Source of the DNA: Candidatus Omnitrophota bacterium
Lineage (GTDB): Bacteria; Omnitrophota; Gorgyraeia; Gygaellales; Profunditerraquicolaceae
Reading direction: 5' to 3'
Length of the DNA stretch: 64,000 nucleotides
Assembly (NCBI GenBank): GCA_028716965.1
Contig: JAQUOV010000004.1
Span: forward strand, 8,377 to 72,376
A program made the translations under genes and the position numbers. Below the pieces are notes generated by a model that worked only from the letters and a program-made list of their open reading frames with translations, searched no databases and was not told the origin of the DNA. This document shows positions 18,171 through 58,160 of this stretch, piece after piece; position 1 is the first letter of the stretch; each line of letters starts with the position of its first letter.

Positions 18171-18251
18171 TATGAACCCCTCGCCTTCTGTAAATTTAAC
18201 TATTGAAGCCATGGGGTTTAATGAGCTGACTAAGGAAGAAGGTGCGGGATG
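18171..18251 (+). repeat. Family A junction element, copy A1 (short derivative of the GIY-YIG cassette)
   Basis: Left arm TATGAACCCCTCGCCTTCTGTAAATTTAAC, right arm GAAGGTGCGGGATGA. Contains in-frame micro-[29 protein letters not shown] whose TGA overlaps ATG 18249 of the downstream gene. Confidence 0.75.
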
Positions 18252-18710
18252 AAAAAGAGCAGAACTATACATAAGCGCCCTACGTGGGATGAATATTTCC
18301 TGGAGATGGCAGGCTTGGTTGCCAAAAGGTCAACCTGCCTGCGCCGCTCTGTTGGTGCGGTATTGGTAAGAGAAAAAAGAATTTTGGCTACCGGTTATAA
18401 CGGCGCTCCCAGCGGTTTGAAGCACTGTGTTGAAATCGGCTGTATACGCCAGCAGTTAAAGATACCTTCCGGAGAACGCCATGAATTATGCCGCGCCTTA
18501 CATGCAGAGCAGAACGCGCTTATCCAGGCCTGCCTGCACGGCATAAGCGTAAAAGGCGCAACTTTATATGCCACTAATCAGCCGTGCGTTATCTGCGCCA
18601 AGATGCTCATTAACGCCGGGATAAGGGAGATCGTAATTGCCGAAGGCTACCCGGACAAAATGGCGATGAGCTTCTTAAGGCAGGCAAAGATAAGAATAAG
18701 GAAAATATGA
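18249..18710 (+). CDS. Deoxycytidylate (dCMP) deaminase, ComEB-like
   Basis: 153 aa. CDA-fold zinc motifs HAEQNA and PCVICAKML; N-terminus KRPTWDEYF typical of dCMP deaminases. Stop TGA lies inside the left arm of element A2. Confidence 0.8.
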
Positions 18711-19011
18711 ACCCCGCACCTTCTTTAAATTCAATAATGTACCATGCGTATCTTCTTAAAAGTAAAAAGAATGATACTTTTTATATTGGATATACAAATA
18801 ATATTGAAAGAAGGTTAAAAGATCATAGCTCCGGGATAGTTGAATATGCAGGGAAATATGTGCCTTGGGAAATAGTGTATTATGAAAGCTCTATTTCCTT
18901 GGTTGATGCTAATCAAAGGGAGAGATCTCTTAAATCTTTTGGGAGGGCATATTCAGGTTTAAAACTTAGAATTAAAAATAGCTTGAATAAGAAAGAAGGT
19001 GCGGGGTGAAG
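18704..19011 (+). mobile_element. Family A full-length element: TIR-flanked YhbQ-like GIY-YIG cassette (putative autonomous copy)
   Basis: Left end ATATGAACCCCGCACCTTCTTTAAATTCAA and right end TTGAATAAGAAAGAAGGTGCGGGGTGAAG are inverted complements (16-bp perfect core ACCCCGCACCTTCTTT). The ends enclose a 100-codon GIY-YIG ORF. Confidence 0.75.
18707..19009 (+). CDS. GIY-YIG nuclease superfamily protein (UPF0213/YhbQ-like)
   Basis: 100 aa. [32 protein letters not shown] matches the GIY-(x10)-YIG plus conserved R/H catalytic region of YhbQ-like proteins. Conserved EGAG near the C-terminus as in E. coli YhbQ. ATG overlaps upstream TGA (ATGA); its TGA overlaps the nrdR GTG (GTGA). Confidence 0.8.
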
Positions 19012-19473
19012 TGTCCGTTTTGCGGATATAAAGAGGATAAGGTCGTGGACTCCCGCGCTACAGCCGAAGAATCGGCAGTCAGGCGCAGAAGGGAATGCCT
19101 GAAATGCGGCAAGCGTTTCACTACTTATGAGTATGTTGAAGAGGTCTCTTTGTTAGTGATCAAGAAAGACGGCCGCAGGGAGGCCTTTGACCGTAAAAAG
19201 ATCTTAGCCGGTATAATCCGCGCCTGCGAAAAGCGTCCGGTGAGCGTGGAAAAGATGGAAGGGGTAGTTGTCCAGGTTGAGCATGCCATCCAGAAGAAAA
19301 GTGACCGCGAGGTTTTGTCCAGCAGGATAGGGGAGCTGGTTATGGAGAAGCTTAAGCAGATTGATGATGTTGCTTATGTGCGCTTTGCCTCGGTCTATAG
19401 GCAGTTTAAGGACGTGGGGCAGTTTATGGTGGAGTTGAGGGATATTTTGGGCAAAGATAAGAAGAAGAAATAG
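19006..19473 (+). CDS. nrdR: Transcriptional repressor NrdR
   Basis: 155 aa. N-terminal zinc ribbon MKCPFCG...CLKCGKRFTTYE plus ATP-cone; GTG start supplied by the element A2 right arm. Confidence 0.9.
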   Translation: MKCPFCGYKEDKVVDSRATAEESAVRRRRECLKCGKRFTTYEYVEEVSLLVIKKDGRREAFDRKKILAGIIRACEKRPVSVEKMEGVVVQVEHAIQKKSDREVLSSRIGELVMEKLKQIDDVAYVRFASVYRQFKDVGQFMVELRDILGKDKKKK

Positions 19474-19475
19474 GC

Positions 19476-19548
19476 GGTTAGCGGGTCCTGGCGAGGCTTG
19501 TTTTCGCCGCGCACCGCGACTCAAATCAAGCCTCGCCACCCGCTAACT
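19476..19548 (+). repeat. Family B 73-nt nested-hairpin repeat, copy 2 (after nrdR)
   Basis: Outer stem GGTTAGCGGGT/ACCCGCTAAC, second stem GCGAGGCTTG/CAAGCCTCGC, inner CGCGcacCGCG. Same 73-nt length and architecture as 7899-7971, with compensatory substitutions. Confidence 0.7.
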
Positions 19549-19587
19549 ATATTTCTTGTCTTTCCCTAAAACATAGAGGAGCCGGTA

Positions 19588-20001
19588 ATGGTTGAGATGG
19601 AGTTGAATAAGATTGTAATTGACGAGAAACGGCATGACCAGTTGATTGTTTTGAAAGAAAAAGGCGGCACGCGGGTTTTGCCGATCGTCATCGGCCTAAA
19701 TGAGGCCTCGGCCATAAAATTAAAGATCAGCGGGTTCAACCCGCCGCGGCCCCTTACGCACGATTTAATTTATACGATGCTTAAGGATTTAAACGCGGAT
19801 GTGGAGAAGGTGATTATCGATAAGCTGGAAGATACCACCTTTCATGCCAAGATCTTTATTAAAACCGGCAGCGGAGATTCAAGGATCATTGATGCCCGCC
19901 CTTCGGATAGCGTGGCTTTGGCAGTGAGGTTCCATGCTCCGATTTTTGTAGAAGATGAGATCGTCAGGCAGTTTGAGTTGTTTGATAAAGATAAGCAGTA
20001 A
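19588..20001 (+). CDS. Bifunctional nuclease family protein (DUF151/BFN domain)
   Basis: 137 aa. LPIVIGLNEASAI...RPLTHDL pattern typical of the DUF151 family. Confidence 0.75.
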   Translation: MVEMELNKIVIDEKRHDQLIVLKEKGGTRVLPIVIGLNEASAIKLKISGFNPPRPLTHDLIYTMLKDLNADVEKVIIDKLEDTTFHAKIFIKTGSGDSRIIDARPSDSVALAVRFHAPIFVEDEIVRQFELFDKDKQ

Positions 20002-20028
20002 AATACCCCACCTTAAATCTTAACGCTT

Positions 20029-21477
20029 ATGGAGCTTGGATTTAACGAGAAAGATAAAAGTATTTTAAGGCCGGTTTATGATTTTGCCAAAACCAGGAAG
20101 GTAAAATTATACCTTGTGGGCGGGGCGCTGCGCGATTTAATCTTAAGACGCCGGAAGAGTAATCCGGATTTTGATTTTTGCCTGTGCCGCGGGGCGATAA
20201 ATTTCGGCCGTAAGTTAGCCGCGAAACTAAGGGCAGGATTTGTAGTCCTGGATGAGGAGCACGCTGCCTGCCGGCTGGTAAAGAAGATCGGCGATAAGGT
20301 TTATACTTTTGATTTTACGGATTTCCGCGCCAGGACCCTGGAAAAAGACCTTTTGCACCGGGATTTTACCATAAACTCCATGGCCGTGGAGTTTAAAGAT
20401 GTCTTTAGCGGAGAAGATTTAAGCACATTAATTATTGATCCTTATTCCGGCAGGCAGGATATTAAGCGCAAGATCATCCGTGCCTGCGGCAGCAACTCTT
20501 TCAAAGAAGACCCTTTGCGGATCCTGCGCGCTTTTAGCTTTAGCTGTATGCTGGATTTTGCCCTGGATAAAGAAACATTGCGCCTGGCAAAAAAAGATAA
20601 ACATTTGATCAGCGATGTATCAAGCGAGCGCATCCGGGAAGAGTTATTCAAGATCTTTGACAGCCTTACGGCCGGTGCTTCTTTAGCTGTGTTGGACAAG
20701 CTTAAGATTTTAGAGATTATTTTCCCCGAGATAAAGCCCATGCGCGGTATCGGCCAGGGGCCTTATCATCACCTGGACGTCTGGCAGCATACCCTGGAGA
20801 CCTTAAGCCAGTTTGAGTTATTATTGAGCTCCTTTAAACAGAACCCTGAAATAAGCAAGTATCTGGAAGAGGAGGTCGCCGGACAGCGCAAAAGGTCAAG
20901 CCTTTTGAAGCTGGCCTGTATTTTGCACGATGTAGGTAAGCCGAAAGCCTTGCGCAGGGAAAAGGGCAAGATTATCTTCCATGGCCATGAAAGAATAGGC
21001 CTGGGAATAACCCGTATGATTTCCCGCAGGCTGAAGTTATCCAATGACGAAACCCGCTCCCTGGAAAGGATTGTACTCTGGCATTTAAGGCCGGGATACC
21101 TGGCGGACTGCATTCGGCCGACTGAGCGGGCGATCTTCAGGTATTTTCGCGATACCGGGGATGATGCCCTGGCAGTGCTTTTGTTATCGCTGGCTGACCA
21201 GCGTGCTACCAAAGGCCCGCTGACCACAGCGCTTTCGCGCGTACGCCATGAGAAAACAACAAAGGCGTTAATTAAAAGGCTGTTAAAACAAAAAGACGAA
21301 AAGGAATTAACCCGCCTTTTAAACGGCAATGACCTGATGCGTAAATTCAAATTAATGCCTTCGCCGCTGATCGGCAAAGTGCTCGCGGGCCTGGAGGAGG
21401 CGCAGGCCATCGGCAGGATTAAGAATAAAGAGCAGGCTTTTAAACTGGCAGCTTCCATAATTAAACAAAAAAAATGA
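20029..21477 (+). CDS. cca: CCA tRNA nucleotidyltransferase / poly(A) polymerase family with HD domain
   Basis: 482 aa. Pol-beta NTase head motif LVGGALRDLIL. HD motif region ILHDVGKP...HGHE. Confidence 0.85.
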   Translation: MELGFNEKDKSILRPVYDFAKTRKVKLYLVGGALRDLILRRRKSNPDFDFCLCRGAINFGRKLAAKLRAGFVVLDEEHAACRLVKKIGDKVYTFDFTDFRARTLEKDLLHRDFTINSMAVEFKDVFSGEDLSTLIIDPYSGRQDIKRKIIRACGSNSFKEDPLRILRAFSFSCMLDFALDKETLRLAKKDKHLISDVSSERIREELFKIFDSLTAGASLAVLDKLKILEIIFPEIKPMRGIGQGPYHHLDVWQHTLETLSQFELLLSSFKQNPEISKYLEEEVAGQRKRSSLLKLACILHDVGKPKALRREKGKIIFHGHERIGLGITRMISRRLKLSNDETRSLERIVLWHLRPGYLADCIRPTERAIFRYFRDTGDDALAVLLLSLADQRATKGPLTTALSRVRHEKTTKALIKRLLKQKDEKELTRLLNGNDLMRKFKLMPSPLIGKVLAGLEEAQAIGRIKNKEQAFKLAASIIKQKK

Positions 21478-23969: not shown

Positions 23970-24001
23970 TTAGAAAAGAGAGGGGTAGCATCCGGGTATA
24001 A

Positions 24002-24928
24002 ATGCAAGAGTCCAGGTTGATTTTATTCGCGTTGTTTATTGGCTTATTCAGCCAGGCCCATCTTTATGATGTATACGCAGAAGAATCCGGTGCTGCGGTA
24101 AAGTCCGTCTATCGCCAGAAGCTCGGACAGGTTATAGAGGTAAAAAAGGAGGAGCTTCCTTGTGAACTGGACAGCTATGTGCGTTATATGCCCTCACAAC
24201 AGGCCCGTGCCCAATCAGGTAAAGTAGCAGTTACGGATTCAGCCTCCGAATTCAGTTATGATGTCAAAATTTTCGGTAAATTGCCGGTGGAGCTGGCGGT
24301 TGGGTCAAGATATATAGGGATAAACAATACAACTGACATAAAGTTTCCGGCGCGCTTGACCCAGTTATCGGTAGGCGCTGAAACCGTCCTGCCGTTCTTT
24401 TTTAATAAGACTTATTTTGTCCTGGGGTTTGCCCCGTCGTTTTACAGTGATAATTGGAATCTTAATTCTTCCTCTTTCCGCATCCCGCAGCGTTACTTCC
24501 TTATTTATCAGCCGGACCAGAAATGGACTTTTATCTGCGGTGTGGGTGTGTATCCGGATTTTAAGGATGTGGTCATACCGATCCTGGGTTTTATCTATAA
24601 GCCTGACTCCAGGCTTACCTTTAATATTGTCCCCAATAAGCCGGAGATCACTTATGATCTAAGCGATAAATTAACCCTGTTTTTTGAAGGGGAAATATCG
24701 GAAGATGAGTTTGAGGTGGACAAGGATAACCTGAAAAATGTGGTGCTTGAATACAATGAAATGCATTTAGGCGCGGGGGTTAAATACCGGGTCAATAAAT
24801 ATATCCAAAGCTCAATCTCCGCCGGATGCGTATTCAACCGTTCCATTAAATACCGGCACGAGGAGCTGGGCAAGGCAGGAATTAAAAACGGCTTATATAC
24901 TGAATTGCGCCTGGATATATCAATATGA
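24002..24928 (+). CDS. Hypothetical secreted / outer-membrane-like protein
   Basis: 308 aa. Signal peptide. Alternating aromatic/hydrophobic pattern with a C-terminal aromatic residue, suggestive of a beta-barrel; no family assignment. Confidence 0.45.
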   Translation: MQESRLILFALFIGLFSQAHLYDVYAEESGAAVKSVYRQKLGQVIEVKKEELPCELDSYVRYMPSQQARAQSGKVAVTDSASEFSYDVKIFGKLPVELAVGSRYIGINNTTDIKFPARLTQLSVGAETVLPFFFNKTYFVLGFAPSFYSDNWNLNSSSFRIPQRYFLIYQPDQKWTFICGVGVYPDFKDVVIPILGFIYKPDSRLTFNIVPNKPEITYDLSDKLTLFFEGEISEDEFEVDKDNLKNVVLEYNEMHLGAGVKYRVNKYIQSSISAGCVFNRSIKYRHEELGKAGIKNGLYTELRLDISI

Positions 24929-25578: not shown

Positions 25579-25584
25579 CCAAAA

Positions 25585-29859: not shown

Positions 29860-30085
29860 TATTCGCTTTCCGTCTTTCGCTTCGGCACGAAGATTTTCGC
29901 TGTGTGCTTCGGTTTACGTCTCGTTTCGGCAGCGCAGGTTCCTTACGCAATAAGGCATTGCCTGCACTCGCCGTAAAGCCTTGCACACTTTTGCCGAAAA
30001 TCTTCTCATTGTGCCTCCAGCAAAAGACGGAAATCTCATGGCGAGAAACAAGCCAAGGCAGCTCCGATAGCTAAAATCATTGATT
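29860..30085 (+). repeat. Family D MITE-like long-hairpin element, copy 1
   Basis: TTCCGTCTTTCGCTTCGGCACGAAGATTTTCGCTGTGTGC ... GCACACTTTTGCCGAAAATCTTCTCATTGTGCC ... CAAAAGACGGAA; arms are imperfect inverted complements. Homologous to 54165-54395. Confidence 0.65.
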
Positions 30086-34731: not shown

Positions 34732-36732
34732 ATGTCTAAAAATCTGGTTATCGTAGAGTCGCCTACCAAGGCTAAAACCATAAGCAAGATCCTGGGCCAG
34801 GATTTTAGCGTGGTTTCCTCCATGGGGCATATTATTGACCTGCCGCAGAAAGAATTGGGCGTAGATGTAGATAATAATTTCAAGCCGGAATATGTGATTA
34901 TCCCGGCCAGAAAGAAATTGTTGACCCAGCTTAGAAAAGAGGCCAAGTCAAAAGAGAAGATATATGTGGCAACCGACCCTGACCGGGAGGGTGAGGCAAT
35001 CGGCTGGCAGATAAAAGAAAAGGTCTTTAAGGGCAAGGATGTCCTGCGGGTAAGTTTTCATGAGATTACCCCGCATGCGGTAGGGGAGGCCTTTAAATCC
35101 GCACGTGAGTTTGACGCCAATATGATTGAGGCCCAGGTCGGCCGCAGGGTGCTGGACCGTATCGTCGGATATTTCTTGAGCCCTTTACTTTGGAAAAAAC
35201 TTGCCCGCGGTTTAAGCGCAGGGCGCGTGCAATCCGTAGCCTTAAGGCTGATCGTGGAACGGGAACGCCAGATCCAGGCCTTTACCGCCAGCGAATATTG
35301 GGAGATTATCGCGGAGTTATTTAAGCCTAAGGTCTTCGGGGAGAGTAGTTTTTGCGCTAAACTTGAAAAGATAGACGGTGAAAAAGCGCAGATTAAGACC
35401 CAGGATGAAGCGCAAGCGATCGTAGAGCAGCTTAAGGAAAAAGAGTTTAAGGTCCTGGAGGTTAAGCAAACAGAAAAGAAACGCTATGCCCCGGCTCCAT
35501 TTATCACCAGCACTATGCAGCAGGAGGCCTTTAATAAGCTTAAGTTTAATGCCTCCAAAACCATGATGGTGGCGCAGCAGCTTTACGAGGGTATTGATAT
35601 CGGCGGGGATAACCCCCTGGGCTTGATTACTTATATGCGTACGGATTCTCCGAATACCGCTCCGGAGGCAGTTGCCGAAGTGCGTGAGCATATCGGCAGG
35701 GTCTTCGGCAAGGATTTTGTCCCGGAGAAACCGAATTTTTTCAAGGCTAAAAAATCAGCGCAGCAGGCGCATGAAGCGATCCGGCCAAGCTATGTTTCGC
35801 GTTCTCCGGAAAGCATGAAAGATTTCTTAAGCCACGACCAGTTTCGTTTATATGAGCTCATTTATAACCGTTTCCTGGCCAGCCAGATGAAACCCGCTGA
35901 ATTCCTGGCTACTTCGGTAGATATCTGCGCGGATAAATATTTGTTTGCGGCTAACGGAAGCCATTTGCTTTTTGAGGGGTTCCTGGCTGCTTACAACAGG
36001 ACCGAAGAGGAGGAAAAGGATGACGAGGAGGAGAAAGAAAAAAACAAGAATGTGGTCCCTCCTTTAGAACAAGGAGAGGTTCTCGGTCTGACTAAGCTTG
36101 TGCCCTCCCAACATTTTACCAAGCCGCCTCCGAGGTTTTCGGACAGCTCTTTAGTCAAGGCCCTGGAAGAGGACGGGATCGGCCGGCCTTCAACCTACGC
36201 GCCGATTATTTACACGCTCATTCTGCGCGATTATGTGCGCAGGATTAAAGGCTATCTTAACCCCACGGAGCTTGGTTTCAAGGTCAGCGATATGCTGGTA
36301 GAATATTTCCCGAAGATTATAGATGTCAAGTTTACCGCGCTTATGGAGGATGAGCTGGATGAGATTGAAGAAGGCAGGCTTAAGCGCGTGGAGGTATTAA
36401 AAGAATTCTACGCCCCTTTTAAAGAGAGCCTGGATTTTGCCCAGGCGAATATAAAGAAGGAGGTTATTACTACCGATCAGATTTGCGATAAATGCGGCAA
36501 GCCTTTTATCATAAAGTGGGGCCGGCGCGGTAAATTCCTGAGTTGTTCGGGTTTTCCCTCCTGCAAGAATTCCAGGTCTATTACTTCCGGTGTCAAATGC
36601 CCGGAAGAAAATTGCGGCGGGGAATTGATCGAGCGCAGGTCAAAGCGCGGTTTTTTCTATGGTTGTTCAAACTTTCCGAAATGCACCTTTACCTCGCGTA
36701 CGTTGCCGCAGGATAAGGAAGATACGCAATGA
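34732..36732 (+). CDS. topA: DNA topoisomerase I
   Basis: 666 aa. TOPRIM N-terminus MSKNLVIVESPTKAKTISKILG, active-site Tyr region, C-terminal Cys4 zinc ribbons (CDKCGKP, CPEENCGG). Confidence 0.92.
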   Translation: MSKNLVIVESPTKAKTISKILGQDFSVVSSMGHIIDLPQKELGVDVDNNFKPEYVIIPARKKLLTQLRKEAKSKEKIYVATDPDREGEAIGWQIKEKVFKGKDVLRVSFHEITPHAVGEAFKSAREFDANMIEAQVGRRVLDRIVGYFLSPLLWKKLARGLSAGRVQSVALRLIVERERQIQAFTASEYWEIIAELFKPKVFGESSFCAKLEKIDGEKAQIKTQDEAQAIVEQLKEKEFKVLEVKQTEKKRYAPAPFITSTMQQEAFNKLKFNASKTMMVAQQLYEGIDIGGDNPLGLITYMRTDSPNTAPEAVAEVREHIGRVFGKDFVPEKPNFFKAKKSAQQAHEAIRPSYVSRSPESMKDFLSHDQFRLYELIYNRFLASQMKPAEFLATSVDICADKYLFAANGSHLLFEGFLAAYNRTEEEEKDDEEEKEKNKNVVPPLEQGEVLGLTKLVPSQHFTKPPPRFSDSSLVKALEEDGIGRPSTYAPIIYTLILRDYVRRIKGYLNPTELGFKVSDMLVEYFPKIIDVKFTALMEDELDEIEEGRLKRVEVLKEFYAPFKESLDFAQANIKKEVITTDQICDKCGKPFIIKWGRRGKFLSCSGFPSCKNSRSITSGVKCPEENCGGELIERRSKRGFFYGCSNFPKCTFTSRTLPQDKEDTQ

Positions 36733-36944
36733 ACCTTGTAAATTTCTCGCTCAAGCCGATTTTTTAACGCCAATGTTCTTTCATATTCCGGCGGTTGCAG
36801 AACTTACGGTATTTGCTCTGGCAAATACCACTCAAACAGCTTCGCCGTCCCCGTTTTGTCGCTTCGCTCCACGGGGATTCCCGGAATACTGAAAGCTCCA
36901 TTGGCTAAAATCGACATTCGCTCGAAATTTACCAGGTTCATTTT
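36728..36944 (+). repeat. Family C MITE-like element, copy 2 (inserted at the topA stop codon)
   Basis: Head AATGAACCTTGTAAATTTCTCGCTCAAGCCGATTTTTTAACGCCAATG and tail CATTGGCTAAAATCGACATTCGCTCGAAATTTACCAGGTTCATTT are inverted complements. The topA TGA lies inside the terminal AATGAACC. Confidence 0.7.
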
Positions 36945-45797: not shown

Positions 45798-47715
45798 GGC
45801 CGCAAGCCTCCTTACTTCTTTTCTGCCTTTAAATGTGAGCCTGTTTTTTGGCAGGAGGCTGGGGGACCTTATTTATTTCTTTGATGCCCGGCACCGCGGG
45901 ATCGCCTGCGCCAATATCAGGAGGGCCATAGTAATGAATAATGACTTCCTGCAGGCCCGCAAGATAACACGCAGGGCTTATCAGTCTTTTGGCCAGAACC
46001 TTATAGAGATTTCTTTTATCCCGCGCATAAATAAAAAATATCTTGATAAATTCATCCATATTGAAAACAGGCAGTATATTGATGAAGCCTTTAAAAGGGG
46101 CAAAGGGGTAATCTTTCTGGCTGCCCATGAAGGTAATTGGGAGCTTTCTAATATTATCTGTGCCAACCTGGGTTTTTCGTTTATCCTGTTTGTCCGCGAC
46201 CAGGGTTTCGTGCGGCTAAACGCCCTGCTTAATTCTTACCGGCTTAAGCAGGGCGCAAAGATTATCCATAAAAAAACCGGGCTGCGCCAGTTGATTGATG
46301 TGCTTGAAAGCAACCAATCCATAGGCATGACCGTTGACCAGGGGGGCAAGCACGGAGAGGTAGTGAATTTCTTTGGCAAATCCGCCTCGATGTCTACCGG
46401 TGCGGTGAAGCTGGCCCTGAAACATGACTGTTCCATAATCCCTGTTTTTTATACGCGCATAAAAGGGCCTCATACTAAAGTTATCCTGGATCAGGTTTAT
46501 ACGGTAAGCAAAAGCGGGGACCTGCAAAGGGACCTGCGCGATAACCTGGAGAGGCTGGTCAATATTTACGAGAAATATATCCGGCAATACCCCCACGAGT
46601 ATCTCTGGACTTATAAAATTTGGAAGTATGGCAAAGAAAAAGATATCCTCATTCTTTCCGACGGTAAGGCCGGGCACCTGCGCCAGTCTGAAAGCGTAGC
46701 TAAGTTAGCCAGCCGGAAATCAGCTGCCCGGGGGGTAAAGACTACTTTGTCTATTTGCGAAGTGAAATTCCGCACCAGCCTGCGCAGGTTTATATTCAGC
46801 CGGATGGTTGTACTATGCGGCAGGCATCAATACCATCTCTGCCTGCGTTATCTGCGCTATGCGCTGGAGGCAGCAAGCTGGCAGAGTTTGATCGGTTTCA
46901 AGCCCGATATTGTTATTTCCGCAGGGGGTAAATTGAGCGGGGTAAATTATATGCTGGCTAAAATAAACCAGGCTAAATCAATTGTCCTGATGCGTCCGGC
47001 AGCCCTAAACCCAAAGGGATTTGACCTGGCAATTATTCCCGAACACGATATGCCGCAGGGCCGTGGTTTGGCTTTCAGGAAAAATATAGTACTAACCGAA
47101 GGGGCGCTTAATTTGGTGGATGCGGATTATCTAAGAGAAAGGTCAGAGAGGCTGCAGCAGTCAGGTTTTTTGAAAGGGCCTTTGTTGAAACCCTGTATCG
47201 GAGTTTTGATCGGCGGCAATAGCAGGAAGTTTTCAATTACCCGGCAGGCGATAATAGAACTGGCAGGTCAAATCAAGGGGGCTGCTGAAAAGCTTGATGC
47301 GGATATCCTCTTATCCACCTCGCGCCGTACGCCGCCTGAAATAGAACAGCTGCTTAAAAATGAATTTGAAGCTTATCCGCGCTGCAGGCTTTTAATTATT
47401 GCCAATGAAAGAAATCATCCTGATGCCGTAGGCGGCATACTGGGGTTAAGCAGGGTAATTGTCAGTTCGCCGGAGAGCATCTCCATGATCTCCGAAGCGG
47501 TGGCGGCAGAAAGATATGTTATCGTATTTATGGCCTCCGGCCTTAGTATGAAGCATCGGCGTTTCTTGAAAAGTTTTCAGGACAAGAGGTATATATATAT
47601 AAAACAGGCTGGAGAGTTGTTTAGCTCCATTGAAGAGATATGGCAAAACCGTCCTGAGCTTAACTTTTCTGCGGATAACTCAAGGGTAAGCGCAGCTTTA
47701 GATAAAATACTATGA
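45751..47715 (+). CDS. Lipid A late acyltransferase (LpxL/HtrB family) fused to ELM1/DUF1022-like domain
   Basis: N-terminal half has the HX4D acyltransferase motif (AAHEGNWELS) and EYLWTYKIWKY motif of LpxL. C-terminal ~330 aa resembles the mitochondrial-fission ELM1 / DUF1022 glycosyltransferase-like family. Annotated start overlaps lpxK by 47 nt, so the true start may be later. Confidence 0.7.
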   Translation: MKQNLIADYLSCFLFRAASLLTSFLPLNVSLFFGRRLGDLIYFFDARHRGIACANIRRAIVMNNDFLQARKITRRAYQSFGQNLIEISFIPRINKKYLDKFIHIENRQYIDEAFKRGKGVIFLAAHEGNWELSNIICANLGFSFILFVRDQGFVRLNALLNSYRLKQGAKIIHKKTGLRQLIDVLESNQSIGMTVDQGGKHGEVVNFFGKSASMSTGAVKLALKHDCSIIPVFYTRIKGPHTKVILDQVYTVSKSGDLQRDLRDNLERLVNIYEKYIRQYPHEYLWTYKIWKYGKEKDILILSDGKAGHLRQSESVAKLASRKSAARGVKTTLSICEVKFRTSLRRFIFSRMVVLCGRHQYHLCLRYLRYALEAASWQSLIGFKPDIVISAGGKLSGVNYMLAKINQAKSIVLMRPAALNPKGFDLAIIPEHDMPQGRGLAFRKNIVLTEGALNLVDADYLRERSERLQQSGFLKGPLLKPCIGVLIGGNSRKFSITRQAIIELAGQIKGAAEKLDADILLSTSRRTPPEIEQLLKNEFEAYPRCRLLIIANERNHPDAVGGILGLSRVIVSSPESISMISEAVAAERYVIVFMASGLSMKHRRFLKSFQDKRYIYIKQAGELFSSIEEIWQNRPELNFSADNSRVSAALDKIL

Positions 47716-47794
47716 ACCTCGCACCTTCTAAGTATCCGACTATTAAAGGTATGAGGTTGAATGGATTTATTAAAGAGGAAGGTGCGGGGTGAAG
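47711..47794 (+). repeat. Family A junction element, copy A3
   Basis: TATGAACCTCGCACCTTCT ... GAGGAAGGTGCGGGGTGAAG. In-frame micro-ORF MNLAPSKYPTIKGMRLNGFIKEEGAG. Supplies the TGA stop of the upstream gene and the GTG start of the downstream gene. Confidence 0.75.
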
Positions 47795-49882
47795 ATACTG
47801 CAGATATTACCGGAGCTTAATGTGGGGGGAGTTGAGACCGGGACCCTGGATTTATCTAAATACCTTGTGCGCCTTGGGCATAAGGTAGTAGTGGTTTCTG
47901 CCGGCGGAAAACTGGTGGAAGAACTTCAGGCATGCGGCGCCAGGCATTACACTCTGGCAGTGCATAAGAAATCAATCTTTTCTATATTTAAATTGGTCCC
48001 AGTATTGGCGCAGATCATTAAACAGGAAGAGATTGATATCGTGCATGCCCGTTCGCGCGTACCGGCATGGATTGCTTATTTTGCCTGCCGCAGGACGCGG
48101 GCCGTATTTGTAACTACCTGCCACGGTTATTATAAAAAACATTTTTTCAGCCTGGTAATGGGCTGGGCCAAGAGGGTGATTGTTTTAAGCAATGTGATCG
48201 CCCGGCACATGATTGATGATTTCGCAGTGCCGCATGAGCGCATCAGGCTTATCCCGCGCAGCGTGGATTTAGAGAGGTTTAAATACCTTGACCCCAAGCT
48301 GAAAAGAAAAGATGAATTTAACGTGGGGATCATCGGCAGGATTACTCCTTTAAAAGGCCACTTGCATTTTATTAAAGCTATGGCGCGCATCTCCAGGATC
48401 GTCCCCCGTTTAAAGATCTGGATAGTCGGCGATGCCCCGGCGTCAAAAGAGGCGTATAAGGAAGAGGTGCAGGTGTTGGTGCGCCGGCTCGGGCTCTGGC
48501 ATTGCACAGAATTTTTGGGCACGCAGCGGGATATCCCGGGGATATTGGCGCATTTAGACCTTGTAGTTCTGGCTACTACAACCCATGAAGCATTCGGCAG
48601 GGTGATCGTTGAGGCCCAGGCTTCCGGCGTGCCGGTAGTAGCTACCAAAGTAGGCGGGGTAATCGATATTATTGAGGATGGGAAAAACGGGCTGTTAGTG
48701 CCTCCTGCCGACCACAAAAGTATGGCGGATGCCGTATTACGTATTTTTGAAGATACGCAGTTAGCTCAGAACCTGGCTGAAAATGCCTATATAAAGATTA
48801 AAGAAAAGTATACCGTAGAGTTGATGGTTAAAAATACCCTGGATGTTTACCGTGAAGCATTAAGCAATTTTAAGCTCCTGATAATCAAATTCAGTTCCCT
48901 GGGGGATATAATCCTATCCACGGCGGCATTAAGGGCAATATGGCAGAAGTTTTCCAAAAGCAATTACAAGATAAGTTTCCTGACCGGGGAGGAATCAAAA
49001 GAGGTGCTCTTAAGGAGCCCTTACATTGACGAGCTTTTGGTATGCGACCTGAAGAATAACGATAAAGGGCTAAAAGGTCTATGGGGTATCGGCAGTGTAT
49101 TAAGAAAAAAGCATTTTGATATGGTCATCGACCTGCAGAATAACCGGGCCAGCCATATACTTTCTTATTTAAGCGGCTGTATTAATTGCTACGGTTATGA
49201 CAACGGGAAGTTTTCCTTTTTGCTCCAGCACCGCATTAAAGACGAGAAGCCTCCTATTGACCCGGTAACGCACCAGTTCAGGATATTGAAGATGCTTGGT
49301 ATTGACCTTTTGGATAATGCGCTTGAGCTCTGGCCTTCTTCCGAAGACGTAAAACATATAGAGGAGCTTTTGAATGCCCAATGGTTAAGCCAGGCGCAGA
49401 AAATAGTAGGTATTAATATCAGCGCTTCCAAGAGATGGAGTACTAAGCTTTGGCCGCACCAGTACCTGGTGCGGCTTTGCGAGGAGCTGGGTATGCGCGA
49501 TATCCGCGTGGTAATCACCGGCACGGCCCAGGATTTAGGTGATGCAGAGCTGCTCGTAAACTCTCTTAAGGGCGCAAAGGTTATTAATGCCTGCGGGAAA
49601 ACCACTGTTAATGAGCTGGCGGTTTTAATTAAAAAATGCCATGTATTTATTTCAGCTGATTCTTCCCCTTTGCATATAGCATCGGCGGTGGGGACACCTT
49701 TTATCGCGCTCTTTGGCCCGACTGACGCCAGGCGGCATCTGCCTCCCGGCAAGGACCGCATTGTGATGAATAAGGATTTAAACTGCAGTCCTTGTTATAA
49801 AACTAAGTGCCGCTCTATGCGCTGTATGAAAGGTATTGCTCCGGATGAGGTGCTATCGGCGGTGGAAAAGTTGCTCAGATGA
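47789..49882 (+). CDS. Glycosyltransferase family 4 fused to family 9 (heptosyltransferase-like) domain
   Basis: N-terminal GT4 (MKILQILPELNVGGVETGTLDL...; EAFGRVIVEAQASGVPVVAT). C-terminal GT9 (LLIIKFSSLGDIILSTAALRAI ... SADSSPLHIASAVGTP). Confidence 0.75.
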   Translation: MKILQILPELNVGGVETGTLDLSKYLVRLGHKVVVVSAGGKLVEELQACGARHYTLAVHKKSIFSIFKLVPVLAQIIKQEEIDIVHARSRVPAWIAYFACRRTRAVFVTTCHGYYKKHFFSLVMGWAKRVIVLSNVIARHMIDDFAVPHERIRLIPRSVDLERFKYLDPKLKRKDEFNVGIIGRITPLKGHLHFIKAMARISRIVPRLKIWIVGDAPASKEAYKEEVQVLVRRLGLWHCTEFLGTQRDIPGILAHLDLVVLATTTHEAFGRVIVEAQASGVPVVATKVGGVIDIIEDGKNGLLVPPADHKSMADAVLRIFEDTQLAQNLAENAYIKIKEKYTVELMVKNTLDVYREALSNFKLLIIKFSSLGDIILSTAALRAIWQKFSKSNYKISFLTGEESKEVLLRSPYIDELLVCDLKNNDKGLKGLWGIGSVLRKKHFDMVIDLQNNRASHILSYLSGCINCYGYDNGKFSFLLQHRIKDEKPPIDPVTHQFRILKMLGIDLLDNALELWPSSEDVKHIEELLNAQWLSQAQKIVGINISASKRWSTKLWPHQYLVRLCEELGMRDIRVVITGTAQDLGDAELLVNSLKGAKVINACGKTTVNELAVLIKKCHVFISADSSPLHIASAVGTPFIALFGPTDARRHLPPGKDRIVMNKDLNCSPCYKTKCRSMRCMKGIAPDEVLSAVEKLLR

Positions 49883-49958
49883 ACCCCGTATCTTCTCTAT
49901 TTAACTATTGAAGCCCATACGGGTTAAAGAATTGGTTAAGAATGAAGGTGCGATGAAT
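49878..49958 (+). repeat. Family A junction element, copy A4 (degenerate)
   Basis: GATGAACCCCGTATCTTCTCTATTTAACTATTGAAGCC ... AAGAATGAAGGTGCGATGAAT. Frame broken by an internal stop; right arm runs in-frame into the ATG of the downstream GT4 gene. Confidence 0.65.
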
Positions 49959-51053: not shown

Positions 51054-51081
51054 TGTTTATTCTCCGGGGGTATAAGCGTAA

Positions 51082-54131: not shown

Positions 54132-54164
54132 TTGATATTTTGTTCTTCGAGATATTGTTCGCAT

Positions 54165-54395
54165 GCGAAAATTTCGCCGTGCGCTAAGCTTTCCGTCTTT
54201 TGTTTCGGCACGAAGATTTTCGCCGTGTGCTTTAAGTTTACGTCTCGCTGCGGCTGCAGTATACTTACGCTGGTAAGATTCTGCCTTCGCTCGACGTAAT
54301 TCCTCGCACACTTTTGCCGAAAATCTTCTAATTGTGCCTTAAGCAAAAGCCGTAAATCTTAGCGAGAGGCAAGTCTCGGCAAACCCGCTAAATTG
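54165..54395 (+). repeat. Family D MITE-like long-hairpin element, copy 2
   Basis: CGCTAAGCTTTCCGTCTTTTGTTTCGGCACGAAGATTTTCGCCGTGTGC ... GCACACTTTTGCCGAAAATCTTCTAATTGTGCC ... CAAAAGCCGTAAATCTTAGCG. Homologous to 29860-30085. Confidence 0.65.
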
Positions 54396-54426
54396 AATAA
54401 ATATCCATTTGCTTTGGGATTAAATT

Positions 54427-55374
54427 GTGCTAAAATCATTGTCTATGATTGATCCAAAGAAGGTAAAAAGGTATTCTATCAAAACACGCTTCAGTAAGGT
54501 GAATGAGAAGGATTTTGCACTTAAGCCGGCTAAACTTAAGAGCTTCCGCGCCTTCTTAGATTCCTTGCCGGATATCCTTAAAGCCAGGGATTTGCGCGCC
54601 CTTTCTGCGGATGTCGCCTCGGCAGCCAGGAAGAAGAAGGCGGTGATTTTGATGGCCGGCGCGCACGTGATTAAGTGCGGGCTTAACCCGGTGTTAATAG
54701 AGCTGATGAGAAAGAAGGTAATCAGCTGTATCTGCCTTAACGGCGCCGGGATCATCCATGATTTTGAGATTGCCTTTCAGGGCAAAACATCCGAAGACGT
54801 TGCCGAAAACCTTAAAAACGGCAGTTTCGGCATGGGCAAGGAAACCGCGGATTTTATTAATCAGGCGGTTAAAGACGGGGTGAGCGAAGGCTTAGGCCTG
54901 GGCAGTTCCGTGGGAAAGATGATCTCCGATGAGAAATTGGCGTATAAGGATTTGAGCCTGCTTTATAACGCTTATAAATATAATCTGCCGGTATGCGTTT
55001 TCGTGGGGATCGGTACGGATATCATCCATCAGCATCCTTCATTTGACGCCGGTTTAACCGCCGAAGGCTCGTTGCGCGATTTCCACACTCTCGTCGAGAA
55101 GATAAGCTCGTTAAACAAAGGGGGAGTGGTTTTAAATTTTGGTTCAGCGGTGCTTTTACCCGAAGTATTCTTAAAAGCGCTTAACCTGGCGCGAAACCTC
55201 GGGAATAAAGTCAAGGATTTTACTACCGCCAACTTTGATATGATTTATCATTACCGGCCGGCGCAGAATGTGGTGAACCGTCCTACTCATTCAGGAGGCA
55301 GGGGCTATTACATTATCGGCCATCACGAGATAATGCTGCCGCTTTTAGCGCAGGCGGTCATCGAAAAAATATGA
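54427..55374 (+). CDS. Deoxyhypusine synthase-like family protein
   Basis: 315 aa. Segments CLNGAGIIHDFE, PVCVFVGIGTDIIHQ and GGVVLNFGSAV parallel the DHS/homospermidine-synthase fold motifs. Embedded within the LPS gene block. Confidence 0.5.
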   Translation: MLKSLSMIDPKKVKRYSIKTRFSKVNEKDFALKPAKLKSFRAFLDSLPDILKARDLRALSADVASAARKKKAVILMAGAHVIKCGLNPVLIELMRKKVISCICLNGAGIIHDFEIAFQGKTSEDVAENLKNGSFGMGKETADFINQAVKDGVSEGLGLGSSVGKMISDEKLAYKDLSLLYNAYKYNLPVCVFVGIGTDIIHQHPSFDAGLTAEGSLRDFHTLVEKISSLNKGGVVLNFGSAVLLPEVFLKALNLARNLGNKVKDFTTANFDMIYHYRPAQNVVNRPTHSGGRGYYIIGHHEIMLPLLAQAVIEKI

Positions 55375-55453
55375 ACCCCGCACCTTTTTTAATTTAGTTA
55401 TTATAAGGTGCAGGGGTTAGAATTCATGAATAAAGAGAAGGTGCGGGGTGAAG
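55370..55453 (+). repeat. Family A junction element, copy A5 (degenerate)
   Basis: TATGAACCCCGCACCTTTTTTAATT ... AAGGTGCAGGGG ... AATAAAGAGAAGGTGCGGGGTGAAG. Micro-ORF broken (MNPAPFLI stop); 1-nt deletion in the right arm. Confidence 0.7.
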
Positions 55454-56464
55454 AACCTAAAAAAGATAATCGCAAAGTTCAATCAGGCAAAGATCTTAGT
55501 TGCCGGCGATCTGATTCTTGATCAGCATATTTGGGGCAATGTTGAAAGAATCTCTCCGGAGGCGCCTGTACCGATTGTCCGCGCCAATAGAAGGAATTAT
55601 GTCCCCGGAGGCGCAGCCAATGTCGCTAACAATATTAGCGCTTTCGGCGCCAAAGTCAGCCTATGCGGGGTATTGGGTGACAGCAAAGACCCGGCTACAG
55701 AAAAGTTTCAGCTTGAGGCTAAGAAACTGGGCATTGATACTAAAGGTGTATTTTTTGAAGAGGGCAGGAAAACAACCCTCAAGACCAGGATTATTGCCGG
55801 CCATCAGCAGGTAGTAAGAGTTGATTGGGAAGATGTGCATAATGTCTCCAGGCATATAAAAGATAAGCTTATTAAATACCTTGTTGATAATATAAGAAAA
55901 TTTGACGCTGTTATTATTGAGGATTATGGAAAGGGGCTTCTTGACCGGCAATTGACGAGGCATATTATTAAAACAGCCAGAGATTTTAAGAAGATAGTAA
56001 CCGTTGATCCGAAAGAGAATAATTTTGATTGCTATAAGCAGGCTACCTGTATTACCCCTAACCGAAAAGAAACCCAGAACGCCATTAGGTATCTTAAGAT
56101 GAATGACCGGGGGAATTTGTTCAGGATTTACAAAGAGGACCTGCTTATGGACGGTGATATTATAAAAGCGGGAGAGGAAATATTGGAGTATTTGCAATTA
56201 GAGAGCCTTTTGATTACGCTTGGCGAAGGCGGCATGTGGCTTTTTGAGAAGGGGCAGAATAAACCTATTCCGACCGTAGCACAGGAGGTTTTTGATGTAT
56301 CAGGCGCAGGGGATACGGTAATCAGCAGTTTTACCCTGGCGCTTTGTGCCGGCGCTTCAAAACTGGAGGCTGCGCATATCGCTAATTTCGCCGCAGGAAT
56401 TGTAGTGGGTAAATTGGGTACTGCTGTAACAAATTGCCGGGAACTTTTAGAGAGGATTAAATAA
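55448..56464 (+). CDS. hldE: D-glycero-beta-D-manno-heptose-7-phosphate kinase (HldE/RfaE domain I, PfkB family)
   Basis: GTG start within the repeat arm. KILVAGDLILDQHIWGNVERISPEAPVP N-terminus and GAGD motif (DVSGAGDT) of RfaE kinase domain. Confidence 0.8.
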   Translation: MKNLKKIIAKFNQAKILVAGDLILDQHIWGNVERISPEAPVPIVRANRRNYVPGGAANVANNISAFGAKVSLCGVLGDSKDPATEKFQLEAKKLGIDTKGVFFEEGRKTTLKTRIIAGHQQVVRVDWEDVHNVSRHIKDKLIKYLVDNIRKFDAVIIEDYGKGLLDRQLTRHIIKTARDFKKIVTVDPKENNFDCYKQATCITPNRKETQNAIRYLKMNDRGNLFRIYKEDLLMDGDIIKAGEEILEYLQLESLLITLGEGGMWLFEKGQNKPIPTVAQEVFDVSGAGDTVISSFTLALCAGASKLEAAHIANFAAGIVVGKLGTAVTNCRELLERIK

Positions 56465-56465
56465 A

Positions 56466-57206
56466 ATGGATGTAATCGCAGTTATACCGGCCAGGTATTC
56501 ATCTACCAGGTTTAAAGCCAAAGTGCTGGCTGATATCATGGGTAAGCCCATGTTGCAGCATGTATGGGAACGGGCTAAGGCAAGCCGCATATTGGATGAT
56601 TTGATTATTGCCTGTGATGATGAGATAATCCGCAAGGCAGCTGTGAAGTTCGGGGCTAAAACCGTGATGACCTCAAAAGAGCATACCTGCGGCACTGACA
56701 GGATAAGCGAGGTGGTCAACCCCCTGGATGTAAAGGTTGTTATAAATATACAAGGGGATGAACCGTTGATCCATCCGATGATGATCGATAATGTCGCGCG
56801 GGCATTATTAGAAGACAGCTCATTGAGCATGGCGACGATTATGAAGAGGATTGAAGACCCCGCGCAGGTTGCCGATCCGAACGTGGTAAAGGTAGTGGTG
56901 GACAAGAACGGCCTTGCCTTGTATTTCTCGCGTGCCCCTATTCCTTATCTGGCAGAGAACGCAGAGGTAAAAGATGCACTTTATTACAAACATATCGGGC
57001 TTTACGGTTATACCAAGGATTTCCTTTTTACTTATAAAAACCTGCCTGTTTCCAATCTTGAGAAGGCCGAGAAACTGGAGCAGCTGCGCGTATTGGCGGA
57101 AGGATTTAAAATTAAAGTGATCGAGACTAAATTTGATACCATAAGCGTGGATACTCCGGAGGACCTGGAGAAGGTGAAAGAATTATTGCAAAAGGGGATA
57201 AGCTGA
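56466..57206 (+). CDS. kdsB: 3-deoxy-manno-octulosonate cytidylyltransferase (CMP-Kdo synthetase)
   Basis: N-terminus MDVIAVIPARYSSTRFKAK and IQGDEPLI motif. Confidence 0.9.
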   Translation: MDVIAVIPARYSSTRFKAKVLADIMGKPMLQHVWERAKASRILDDLIIACDDEIIRKAAVKFGAKTVMTSKEHTCGTDRISEVVNPLDVKVVINIQGDEPLIHPMMIDNVARALLEDSSLSMATIMKRIEDPAQVADPNVVKVVVDKNGLALYFSRAPIPYLAENAEVKDALYYKHIGLYGYTKDFLFTYKNLPVSNLEKAEKLEQLRVLAEGFKIKVIETKFDTISVDTPEDLEKVKELLQKGIS

Positions 57207-58018
57207 TGCATGAGGTTAGCGCGGGGAATATAAAATTCGGGGCCGGCAATCCGCTCGTGCTTATTGCCGGGCCTTGTGTTATTGAGTCGGAAAGCTCATG
57301 CCTTAAGGCTGCCGGAAGGATTAAGGCGATCGTTTCTTCCTGCGGGGTCCCGTTTGTTTTTAAATCCAGCTTTGATAAGGCCAACCGGCTTTCCGGAGAT
57401 TCTTACCGCGGCCCGGGCCTAAGCAAGGGTTTGGTTATTTTGAAAAAAGTAAAGCAGCAGTTAAAGGTCCCTGTTTTAAGCGATGTGCACTGCGCAAAGG
57501 ATATGCCTGCGGCCGCTGAAGTGCTGGATATTATCCAGATACCGGCTTTTTTGTGCCGTCAGACGGATATTGTATTGGCAGCCGCAAAAACCGGCAAGGT
57601 GGTCAATATAAAGAAAGGCCAGTTCCTTGCGCCCTGGGATATTTTACCCATCATCAAAAAGGTGGAATCCGCCGGGAATAAGAAGATATTGATTACGGAA
57701 AGAGGGGTAAGTTTTGGTTATAATAACCTGGTTACGGATTACCGCAGCCTTTCGATTATGCGTAATTTCGGGTATCCGGTAATTTACGATGCTACCCACA
57801 GCGTGCAGCTTCCCGGCGGGAAAGGCACCTGTTCAGGCGGGCAAAGCGAATTTGTTGCGGGGTTATCCAGGGCAGCCGTAGCTTTCGGCTGCGACGGGCT
57901 GTTCCTTGAGGTGCATGTTGACCCTAAAAGCGCGCCTTGCGACGGAGCGAACATGATTAATTTCAGCAAGCTGGAAGCCTTATTGAAACAAATCAGAAAG
58001 ATCGAGAGAGCATTATGA
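57206..58018 (+). CDS. kdsA: 2-dehydro-3-deoxyphosphooctonate aldolase (Kdo-8-P synthase)
   Basis: LIAGPCVIES, DATHSVQLPGG and KGTCSGGQSEF motifs of KdsA. Confidence 0.9.
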   Translation: MHEVSAGNIKFGAGNPLVLIAGPCVIESESSCLKAAGRIKAIVSSCGVPFVFKSSFDKANRLSGDSYRGPGLSKGLVILKKVKQQLKVPVLSDVHCAKDMPAAAEVLDIIQIPAFLCRQTDIVLAAAKTGKVVNIKKGQFLAPWDILPIIKKVESAGNKKILITERGVSFGYNNLVTDYRSLSIMRNFGYPVIYDATHSVQLPGGKGTCSGGQSEFVAGLSRAAVAFGCDGLFLEVHVDPKSAPCDGANMINFSKLEALLKQIRKIERAL

Positions 58019-58160
58019 ACCCCCGCACCTTCTGTAAATTCAAGTATCAGGAGAATACGGCTTAATGATTTAAATAAGAATGAAGGTTCCGGGATAAGTT
58101 GGTTTGAGGTTAAGATTTAAGATTTGAATGAATTCATAGGAGGAAGGTGCTGGGTGAAGA
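58014..58160 (+). repeat. Family A junction element, copy A6 (with duplicated right arm)
   Basis: TATGAACCCCCGCACCTTCTGTAAATTCAAG ... AATAAGAATGAAGGTTCCGGGATAAG ... GGAGGAAGGTGCTGGGTGAAG. Extra C breaks the micro-ORF frame. Confidence 0.7.

Follow-up and report, generated by a model that had tools for sequence, protein, structure and literature searches.

Why should six copies of one repeat each lie exactly where one gene stops and the next begins? The question arises in a stretch of 64,000 nucleotides from a Candidatus Omnitrophota bacterium (GenBank assembly GCA_028716965.1, contig JAQUOV010000004.1, positions 8,377 to 72,376 of the forward strand), hereafter the window, which holds one long copy of a repeat element with a gene for a small GIY-YIG nuclease, and five short copies of the same element. 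The six repeats are probably insertions of a single family of very small transposable elements, bounded by inverted repeats and flanked by a target duplication, whose insertion rebuilds the stop codon of the gene upstream and the start codon of the gene downstream. Within this family, the short form behaves as a non-autonomous derivative of the long one, in the manner of a miniature inverted-repeat transposable element (MITE).

The copies are defined by a left arm, ATGAACCCCGCACCTTCT, and a right arm, GAAGGTGCGGGGTGAAG, which at up to three mismatches occur seven and six times in the window against 0.06 and 0.14 occurrences expected, respectively. The arms are reverse complements of each other, and the same 13-nt inverted-repeat core (ACCCCGCACCTTC / GAAGGTGCGGGGT) is found in every copy. 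In the long form (~295 bp), terminal inverted repeats that pair perfectly over 13 bp and imperfectly over ~29 bp, with the outer ends CCCCGCACCTTC...GAAGGTGCGGGG, surround one gene, encoding a nuclease of ~90 residues. The element proper of the short form measures 70 to 75 bp, and its coding content is confined to a 26-residue mini open reading frame (mini-ORF) or a broken frame. The two cores lie 271 nt apart in the long copy, 49, 49, 48, and 49 nt apart in four short copies, and 110 nt apart in the fifth, at 58016, where a whole element whose right end has decayed precedes the 3' portion of another. The left repeat of the third short copy carries two C-to-T changes that keep the pairing as G.U. 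A repeat finder assigned the window copies to families D1, D3, D4, D6, and D10, the short copies being 61 to 73% alike. When aligned with MAFFT, the short copies match ~31 nt of the 5' end and ~50 nt of the 3' end of the long copy, so that the shared sequence exceeds a generic ribosome-binding region, and they retain both ends of the GIY-YIG element without the nuclease core.

An earlier reading of this DNA from its letters and open reading frames (ORFs), here called the sequence-only reading, had placed both arms at these sites and taken the short copies for MITE-like derivatives of the GIY-YIG cassette. The positions were reproduced to within 1 to 3 nt, and the alignment bore out that the copies have both arms in common and that their similarity reaches well past the ribosome-binding region. 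The derivation itself is supported by the kept ends and missing core, and further by the inverted repeats, the 4-bp duplication, filled and empty sites, nesting, and near-identical copies in unrelated flanks described below. What that reading had not mentioned is that the element family spans well beyond the source genome.

All six window copies are directly flanked on both sides by TGAA. The duplication was tested on 122 short copies, made up of the metagenome matches listed and the copies of the window, by comparing the 4-mers outside Y-CCCGCACC...GGTGCGGG-R; this and the following counts from metagenomes hold among those matches listed. Identical direct 4-mers flanked 58 of the 122 copies, compared to a mean of 8.4 and a maximum of 18 in a control that paired each left flank with a random right flank. 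The commonest duplicated 4-mers were TTTA (16 copies), TGAA and TTCA (11 each), TAAA (8), and TTGA (7). Flanks that were reverse complements of each other numbered only four to five, and nonpalindromic 4-mers were direct in 57 cases versus inverted in 4. The duplication follows the pattern TNNA over the wider family and TGAA in the lineage of the window. The terminal base pair of the element covaries, being C-G in 73 copies and T-A in 35.

Orthologous junctions in other genomes (numbered with the prefix L) present the same sites with and without the element. Between glyA and the dCMP deaminase gene, the window carries an element (...AATA TGAA [element] TGAA AAAG...), and L004 (GATAA TGAA GAAAA) and L099 (GAAA TGAA TAAAC) are empty, each with one TGAA. 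Upstream of glyA, it is L099 that carries an element (GAAAG TGAA [element] TGAA GCACTT), and the window (CCAAG TGAA ACATTT) and L004 (CAAAG TGAA ACATTT) are empty. A single TGAA therefore stands in the empty sites exactly where filled sites show TGAA-element-TGAA. The L099 element contains a nested short copy in reverse orientation with a TTCA duplication of its own, and further nested or tandem copies were found in L095, L114, and L128. Among the metagenome matches listed, 24 pairs of short copies have loops at least 80% identical and unrelated flanks, and the pair L113/L130 is 98% identical. Taken together, the duplication, the filled and empty sites, the nesting, and the like loops in unrelated flanks argue for a transposable element whose short form spreads. 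Other sites are occupied in more than one genome: L074 has an orthologous element at the same place between the LpxL-ELM1 and GT4-GT9 genes, L081 carries one ordinary element with a 50-nt loop between kdsA and kdsD, where the window has the composite copy, and L001 and L004 also hold elements between the dCMP deaminase gene and nrdR. Between orthologous copies, the arms are more conserved than the loops.

How such insertions could be accommodated in tightly packed operons is suggested by the junctions themselves. The sequence-only reading held that the TGA inside the left arm is the upstream stop codon in every case, and that the GTG or ATG at the right arm is the downstream start. The former is true of five of the six window copies, namely the long copy and four of the five short ones. 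The exception is glyA (16923-18170), whose stop is a TAA at 18168-18170, 2 nt before the TGA of the arm. The downstream starts are backed by the NrdR model (NCBIfam TIGR00244), which aligns over 1-146 from the GTG at 19006, and by the orthologs of dCMP deaminase, GT4-GT9, and KdsD, whose first residue matches the start at the right arm; for the GT4 product, the positions of the Pfam domains support the ATG at 49953. The ORF starts TTG 49908 and TTG 58124 fall inside elements and were rejected as true starts. The gene names given earlier agree with Pfam and NCBIfam throughout (SHMT, dCMP deaminase, NrdR, LpxL-ELM1, GT4-GT9, GT4, GSU2086/deoxyhypusine-synthase-like, RfaE domain I kinase, KdsA, and KdsD). 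The expectation that empty orthologous junctions are plain ATGA/GTGA overlaps holds upstream of glyA, where the window and L004 read AAGTGAAAC and L099 has an element flanked by TGAA. In the right repeat, AGGTG, a match to the Shine-Dalgarno sequence, precedes the new start by 4 nt. Other window genes have AGGAG or GGAGG in this role, hence a standard anti-Shine-Dalgarno sequence is expected.

From this arrangement, we propose that the surviving insertions sit at N/TGAA within a start codon (ATG-AAx or GTG-AAx), usually one in an ATGA or GTGA overlap with the preceding stop. Once the element is in place, the upstream gene would still terminate at the left TGAA. The original start codon, which keeps the Shine-Dalgarno sequence in front of it, would open a frame into the element, ATG AAC CCC GCA CCT TC.. 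(MNPAPS...), which in the long copy would translate the nuclease. At the other end, the last base of the element (G or A) together with the TG of the right TGAA would provide the downstream gene with a new GTG or ATG, read as GTG AAx, or as ATG AAx where the terminal pair is T-A, and the AGGTG of the right repeat would serve as its ribosome-binding site. Since stop and start arise from the target duplication, they are a by-product rather than sequence borne by the arms. The junction positions of the sequence-only reading stand on this point; its codons carried within the arms do not, their source being the duplicated TGAA and the last base of the element. For 17 TGAA-flanked elements among the metagenome matches listed, a long ORF ends at the left of 8/17 and starts at the right of 10/17 when they are read forward, and in the reverse reading both counts are 0/17. 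Junctions of this kind outside the window include rplP/rpmC, infA/rpmJ, and lysS/lolC-like. The window holds 569 TGAA sites on both strands and all six insertions lie at gene starts, which requires either strong purging elsewhere or a target preference.

The 100-residue ORF of the long copy reads through the left repeat (MNPAPS) and ends in the right repeat with EGAG at the duplicated TGA. It contains a GIY-YIG domain (Pfam PF01541, E 3.4e-12), also matched T5orf172, and had no match in NCBIfam. Profile matches in the Protein Data Bank were to the UPF0213 protein 1zg2 (5.9e-11), to 1ywl (1.9e-9), and to SLX1 (1.4e-5), and there were weak matches to phage homing-endonuclease families. The AlphaFold model (pLDDT 85) is confident for residues 11-93, comprising the GIY-YIG core and one long helix, while the arm-encoded tails (1-10 and 94-100) are low-confidence coil. 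After the core, there is only this helix (65-93) and a seven-residue tail, with no separate C-terminal DNA-binding domain. The top Foldseek matches were 1zg2 and Slx1, the latter at 28 to 34% identity and a root-mean-square deviation of ~2 Å over ~73 residues; the match to the I-TevI fold was far weaker (E-value 0.36). An identical protein is on record from a Candidatus Omnitrophica metagenome-assembled genome. In 26 homologs, down to 46% identity, the MNPAPS start and the EGAG end, which are the translated arms, are conserved and the linker after MNPAPS is variable. Between intact copies, the ratio of nonsynonymous to synonymous substitution rates in the nuclease core is 0.10 to 0.28, with 58 to 87% of synonymous sites changed (near-saturated), and the copies of the window, L002, and L187 have identical arms despite this divergence of the core. 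Hence, the protein is selected as protein and the arms as nucleic acid. At least 90% of homologs have N41 and T48 (in HNSG and YT), where the window protein has S41 and A48. Two homologs, P0042 and P0039, have an extra LNPAP...GAG stretch within the C-terminal tail, which by its sequence resembles a short element that inserted into the right end of a long copy and is now read as part of the protein.

A locus search with nine close nuclease sequences as query, restricted to one genome per species, returned 65 loci. Arms of the window type were present on six contigs of Omnitrophota type (two of them binned as Planctomycetota) and one Parcubacteria contig. All the Omnitrophota copies share one setting: the TGA by the left arm is, or closely follows, the stop of the preceding ORF, and the next ORF has its start at the GTG or ATG in the right end. 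Compensatory changes in the arms were found in L005 and L006, and L187-L190 hold a long copy at rplP/rpmC. More distant GIY-YIG genes of Saccharibacteria and other Patescibacteria are bracketed by inverted repeats of 12 to 22 bp that start (G/A)CCCC(T/G)CAC, and termini of the form CCCC-N-CAC accompany GIY-YIG relatives in Omnitrophota, Parcubacteria, and Saccharibacteria at 41 to 49% protein identity. A metagenome scan for both arms 30 to 60 nt apart gave at least 120 stretches, those listed mostly having ...CCTTT/AAAGG... arms and lying away from gene junctions. Viral contigs gave a single left-arm match, which we ascribe to chance because it has no right arm and falls within an unrelated GC-rich ORF. 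No Rfam model matched at gathering score in the whole window, or at E ≤1 in 18100-19100, and a plasmid collection held no match to the element. We found no account of such an element in the literature, in a search whose incomplete coverage makes this no proof of novelty.

At the RNA level, the arms pair in every short copy, with folding energies of −22 to −29 kcal/mol, and four short copies fold better than shuffled sequences (z −2.8 to −3.95; e.g., −24.2 kcal/mol and z −2.8 in copy 1, −26.2 and −3.3 in copy 2, −28.6 and −3.95 in copy 4). The arms of the long copy pair as well, closing a long-range stem. Both the Shine-Dalgarno sequence and the start are buried in the stem, at whose foot lies the upstream stop. 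A ribosome that terminates there, or that translates the mini-ORF, would open the hairpin for downstream initiation, and the hairpin would preserve a coupling once given by the ATGA overlap. Tentatively, and with slightly less than even confidence, we suggest that the hairpin in the mRNA keeps the downstream gene translationally coupled. An open in-frame mini-ORF occurs in 8/24 short copies, where about two to three by chance is our estimate rather than a computed value. The loop motif TTGAAGCCATGGGGTT had been considered as a second right arm forming an RNA switch, an idea that was dropped, as the motif aligns equally with the 3' coding end of the long copy; a convincing internal right arm is present in the copy at 55371 only.

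Table 1. Element copies in the window, their parts, and the coding features they create or could occupy (window positions; position 1 is the first nucleotide).
Feature	Coordinates	Strand	Flanking TGAA	Element proper or part	Location and remarks
Short copy 1	18173-18253	+	18173-18176; 18250-18253	18177-18249	Between glyA and dCMP deaminase gene; new ATG at 18249
Mini-ORF of short copy 1	18172-18252	+			In frame; MNPSPS...KEEGAG, then stop
Long copy	18708-19010	+	18708-18711; 19007-19010	18712-19006	Between dCMP deaminase gene and nrdR
GIY-YIG nuclease ORF	18707-19009	+			100 residues; starts at captured host ATG
nrdR	19006-19473	+			GTG start formed by last G of element and TG of duplicated TGAA
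Short copy 2	47713-47793	+	47713-47716; 47790-47793		Between LpxL-ELM1 and GT4-GT9; new GTG at 47789; left TGA is stop of upstream gene; open 26-residue mini-ORF
Short copy 3	49880-49957	+	49880-49883; 49954-49957		Between GT4-GT9 and GT4; right repeat shortened (GAAGGTGCG-A); new ATG at 49953
Short copy 4	55372-55452	+	55372-55375; 55449-55452		Between GSU2086-family gene and RfaE-type heptose kinase gene; new GTG at 55448
Composite copy 5	58016-58158	+	58016-58019; 58155-58158		Between kdsA and kdsD; new GTG at 58154
Copy 5, first element		+		58020-58094	Decayed right repeat 58082-58094; decayed duplication TAAG 58095-58098
Copy 5, 3' part of second element		+		58099-58154	Right TGAA 58155-58158
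Unoccupied target site	16923-16927	+			glyA start GTGAA, overlapping stop of upstream gene (16465-16926)

What moves these elements is less firmly indicated. We regard it as an evenly balanced proposal that the GIY-YIG nuclease is the mobilizing enzyme of long and short copies alike, perhaps by cutting a hairpin or cruciform formed by the repeats. The proposal is drawn from the cross-phylum link between the gene and the repeat ends, the absence of room for another gene, the purifying selection, and the kinship with SLX1, which cuts hairpins and junctions. A host pathway or an unseen transposase could take part.

Several observations count against the mobile-element reading or parts of it. About half of the metagenomic copies among the matches listed have no perfect duplication. 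The short copies of the window are old, and orthologous copies have been kept across species; given this persistence and the divergence of the window copies, movement in the source genome may not be recent. At rplP/rpmC, L187 has the long form and L106 and L126 have the short one, states that fit decay in place as well as re-insertion. The window nuclease is altered at two near-invariant residues (N41S and T48A), and L001, L003, and L006 hold broken long copies, frameshifted or truncated, so that most members of the family may be inactive in these genomes. GIY-YIG enzymes cut DNA by hydrolysis and are not known to transfer strands or join DNA, and the role of the nuclease in movement is putative. 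As to the RNA, the composite copy at 58016 folds no better than shuffled sequences (z −0.34) and stops interrupt three of the five window mini-ORFs. Changes compatible with G.U pairing on the sense strand outnumber those of the opposite kind by 9 to 3, a weak excess as expected from an RNA function, in copies that were not chosen for perfect arms and are too few to decide the matter. This excess and the 8/24 open mini-ORFs lean weakly toward a coupling role.

The short copies of the window might instead be long GIY-YIG elements that each lost the core by deletion at their own junction, an explanation we consider unlikely. It would fit the long copies of L187-L190 and the short ones of L106 and L126 at rplP/rpmC, the age and divergence of the window copies, and the open mini-ORFs. 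The ten short copies in the MAFFT alignment also all have the internal orientation of the long copy relative to the downstream gene (as taken from the collinear alignment; scoring of loops against a reference loop discriminated poorly). Against it stands the single architecture of short copies across many genomes, with loops of 48 to 50 nt and the same retained ends, a uniformity that independent deletions would not yield. Moreover, the 24 listed pairs combine loops at least 80% identical with unrelated flanks and duplications of their own, and in L099 one short copy is nested within another. A further alternative, that an unrelated transposase moves the MITE family and the GIY-YIG gene is a passenger or a selfish nuclease that colonized the element, strikes us as improbable. 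We know of no GIY-YIG transposase and found none in the literature, the protein of ~90 residues has no separate DNA-binding domain, and some DDE transposases likewise make 4-bp duplications beside C-run repeats. Against this alternative stand the association of the GIY-YIG clade with CCCC-N-CAC termini across Omnitrophota, Parcubacteria, and Saccharibacteria at 41 to 49% identity, a long element with space for the nuclease gene only, the purifying selection on that gene, and its nearest structural relatives, which cut branched and hairpin DNA.

Two further explanations were weighed. A free-standing homing endonuclease of the T4 seg/mob kind, spreading to the same site by break repair and leaving short copies as decayed relics, would be in keeping with the GIY-YIG domain and its weak matches to phage homing-endonuclease families, the intergenic position, and the occupation of the dCMP deaminase/nrdR junction in three genomes. 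It is nonetheless very improbable: terminal inverted repeats and target duplication are foreign to homing, the elements occur at many unrelated junctions and noncoding sites, a DNA-binding domain is missing, the fold is closer to SLX1 and UPF0213 than to I-TevI (Foldseek E-value 0.36), and the comparisons of orthologous sites and loop pairs already point to insertion without flanking homology. Hardly credible as an origin is host regulatory RNA, i.e., translational couplers or attenuators evolved in place at operon junctions. Stable hairpins that hide the Shine-Dalgarno sequence and start, strict placement at junctions in the window, arms conserved above loops between orthologous copies, and the weak excess of G.U-compatible changes would all suit it; the target duplication and empty orthologous sites, the nested and reverse-oriented copies, the same repeats in intergenic DNA and within RNA genes of other phyla, and the lack of an Rfam match contradict it. 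The hairpin may nonetheless have a secondary role for the host, which the favored explanation includes. A mobile inverted-repeat element that rebuilds stop and start upon insertion is the explanation we retain.

Elements of related type were also seen beside and inside RNA genes. In bacteria of the candidate phyla radiation, GIY-YIG elements with GCCCCTCAC... repeats abut tRNA genes (L007 9976-10279, L010 9976-10275, L024 9985-10260, and L130 9293-9906); the right repeat ends in GGGC, which also forms the first 4 nt of the tRNA, and the next 5 nt (CAGTA, CGTTA, CCGTA, CGGTA) recur to the left of the element, in L010 nearly so. Judging by these sequences, repeat end and duplication appear to rebuild the 5' end of the tRNA. 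The tRNA at 9570-9641 of L130 has a GIY-YIG-type element on each side. In L011 (1471-1781) and L014 (1931-2247), GIY-YIG elements overlap the 5' part of RNase P RNA (RF00010, ~173 bits), the right repeat ...GGTGCGGGG continuing directly into AGGAAAGTCCGGGC, which we take to be the conserved P4 strand of RNase P RNA; if so, the element is probably an extension of the P3 hairpin. A GIY-YIG element with CCCCGCACCTTTTTG repeats lies on the minus strand of L158 (8133-8369) inside the 16S rRNA gene (6757-8646), which is 1890 nt long against 1533 in the model, and the 23S gene of L130 measures 4184 nt where the model has 2925. This family of GIY-YIG elements may account for some of the insertions in rRNA of uncultivated bacteria.

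Repeats of other kinds were noted as well. An 81-nt intergenic repeat with a GC-rich palindrome (CGAGGCTTG...CAAGCCTCG) occurs in the window at 7885-7965 and 19462-19542, at 80% identity and directly after stop codons, one of them that of nrdR; it may represent a terminator or a further family of repeats. A second intergenic family (10398-10683, 36728-36928, 29865-30045, and 54188-54368) has members of ~180 to 290 nt that are 83 to 94% identical in pairs, with partly shared segments and long internal palindromes (GCTTTCCGTCTTT...AAAGACGGAAA). One of its copies lies just upstream of the GSU2086-family gene in the lipopolysaccharide cluster, and the family had no Rfam match. The ribosomal-protein operon of L187 that hosts a long copy has unusually long intergenic gaps (840-1100, 1700-1825, and 4115-4265), AT-rich or palindromic (e.g., CCCGACGTATCGTCGGG, present twice) and without relation to the GIY-YIG arms; this operon seems to be colonized by further types of insert.

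The broadest reading, which we put forward tentatively and a little short of even confidence, is of an unclassified class of prokaryotic DNA transposon whose sole protein, a GIY-YIG nuclease of ~90 residues with an SLX1-like fold, acts on its own hairpin-forming repeats. Such a class would be widespread in Omnitrophota and bacteria of the candidate phyla radiation, with ends evolved to rebuild the 5' ends they interrupt, namely start codons with their Shine-Dalgarno sequence in Omnitrophota and 5' ends of tRNA in the radiation bacteria. Within RNase P RNA and 16S rRNA genes, the element would be accommodated as an extended helix, and it could in this way live inside essential transcription units. 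There is a substantial chance that the long element and its MITE-like copies represent a new transposon class. If the nuclease does mobilize them, it would be a new enzyme class among prokaryotic transposases, and the long element, at ~295 bp, would rank among the smallest autonomous mobile elements. The rebuilding of stop, start, and ribosome-binding site would give a selfish element a route into tightly coupled essential operons, those seen here serving lipopolysaccharide synthesis, ribosomal proteins, and nrdR. Annotation of uncultivated phyla would be affected, as many downstream genes start at a GTG inside the repeat and ORF callers misplace such starts, and copies of this family would account for part of the unexplained insertions that radiation bacteria have in rRNA, RNase P RNA, and tRNA regions. 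The hairpin also offers a natural, portable test case for translational coupling.

Among known systems, the short copies have the structural features of MITEs: they are short, encode no transposase, end in inverted repeats, are flanked by a target duplication, and are dispersed (five in 64 kb and at least 120 metagenomic stretches). The partner that mobilizes a MITE has to share its ends; a longer element of this kind is present, and its GIY-YIG protein may be what mobilizes them. The long element differs from a classical insertion sequence, its sole ORF being a GIY-YIG gene rather than a DDE, HUH, serine, or tyrosine transposase; because this nuclease is its only protein, it fits no insertion-sequence family known to us. 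Integron attC sites were considered for the AAC...GTT by the arms and rejected, since the flanks are direct and the copies are scattered between housekeeping genes, whereas attC sites have inverse-core and core sites (RYYYAAC...GTTRRRY) as inverted repeats and stand in cassette arrays beside an integrase, at which no search was aimed. UPF0213 (YhbQ/COG2827) and SLX1 are the best matches of the window nuclease in sequence and fold, but they are described as cellular repair proteins or as uncharacterized, with no known inverted-repeat brackets or mobility. GIY-YIG homing endonucleases (I-TevI; T4 Seg) share the catalytic domain and the habit of selfish genes among host genes, yet have a long DNA-binding domain and enter one cognate site by break repair, without repeats or duplication.

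The closest layout is that of REP/REPIN-RAYT systems, in which a small nuclease-type gene is bracketed by short palindromes that are scattered as hairpin-forming derivatives. However, RAYTs belong to the HUH tyrosine transposases, with IS200/IS605 as relatives, and no duplication accompanies REPINs, in contrast to the GIY-YIG protein and 4-bp duplication found here. Correia elements of Neisseria, which are bacterial MITEs, are alike in being short and noncoding, with terminal inverted repeats, a short target duplication, many copies, cotranscription with neighboring genes, mRNA hairpins, and a longer element with the same ends. Unlike in the Correia system, the longer partner here encodes only a small GIY-YIG nuclease and no DDE transposase, the duplication is a 4-bp TNNA (TGAA in the window), and insertion falls inside start codons, where duplication and last element base rebuild stop and start. 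Rickettsia palindromic elements are likewise short palindromic mobile DNA tolerated in expressed genes by keeping frame or structure. They lie in frame within coding sequence and have no known enzyme, whereas the elements described here insert at the start codon itself and rebuild its signals.

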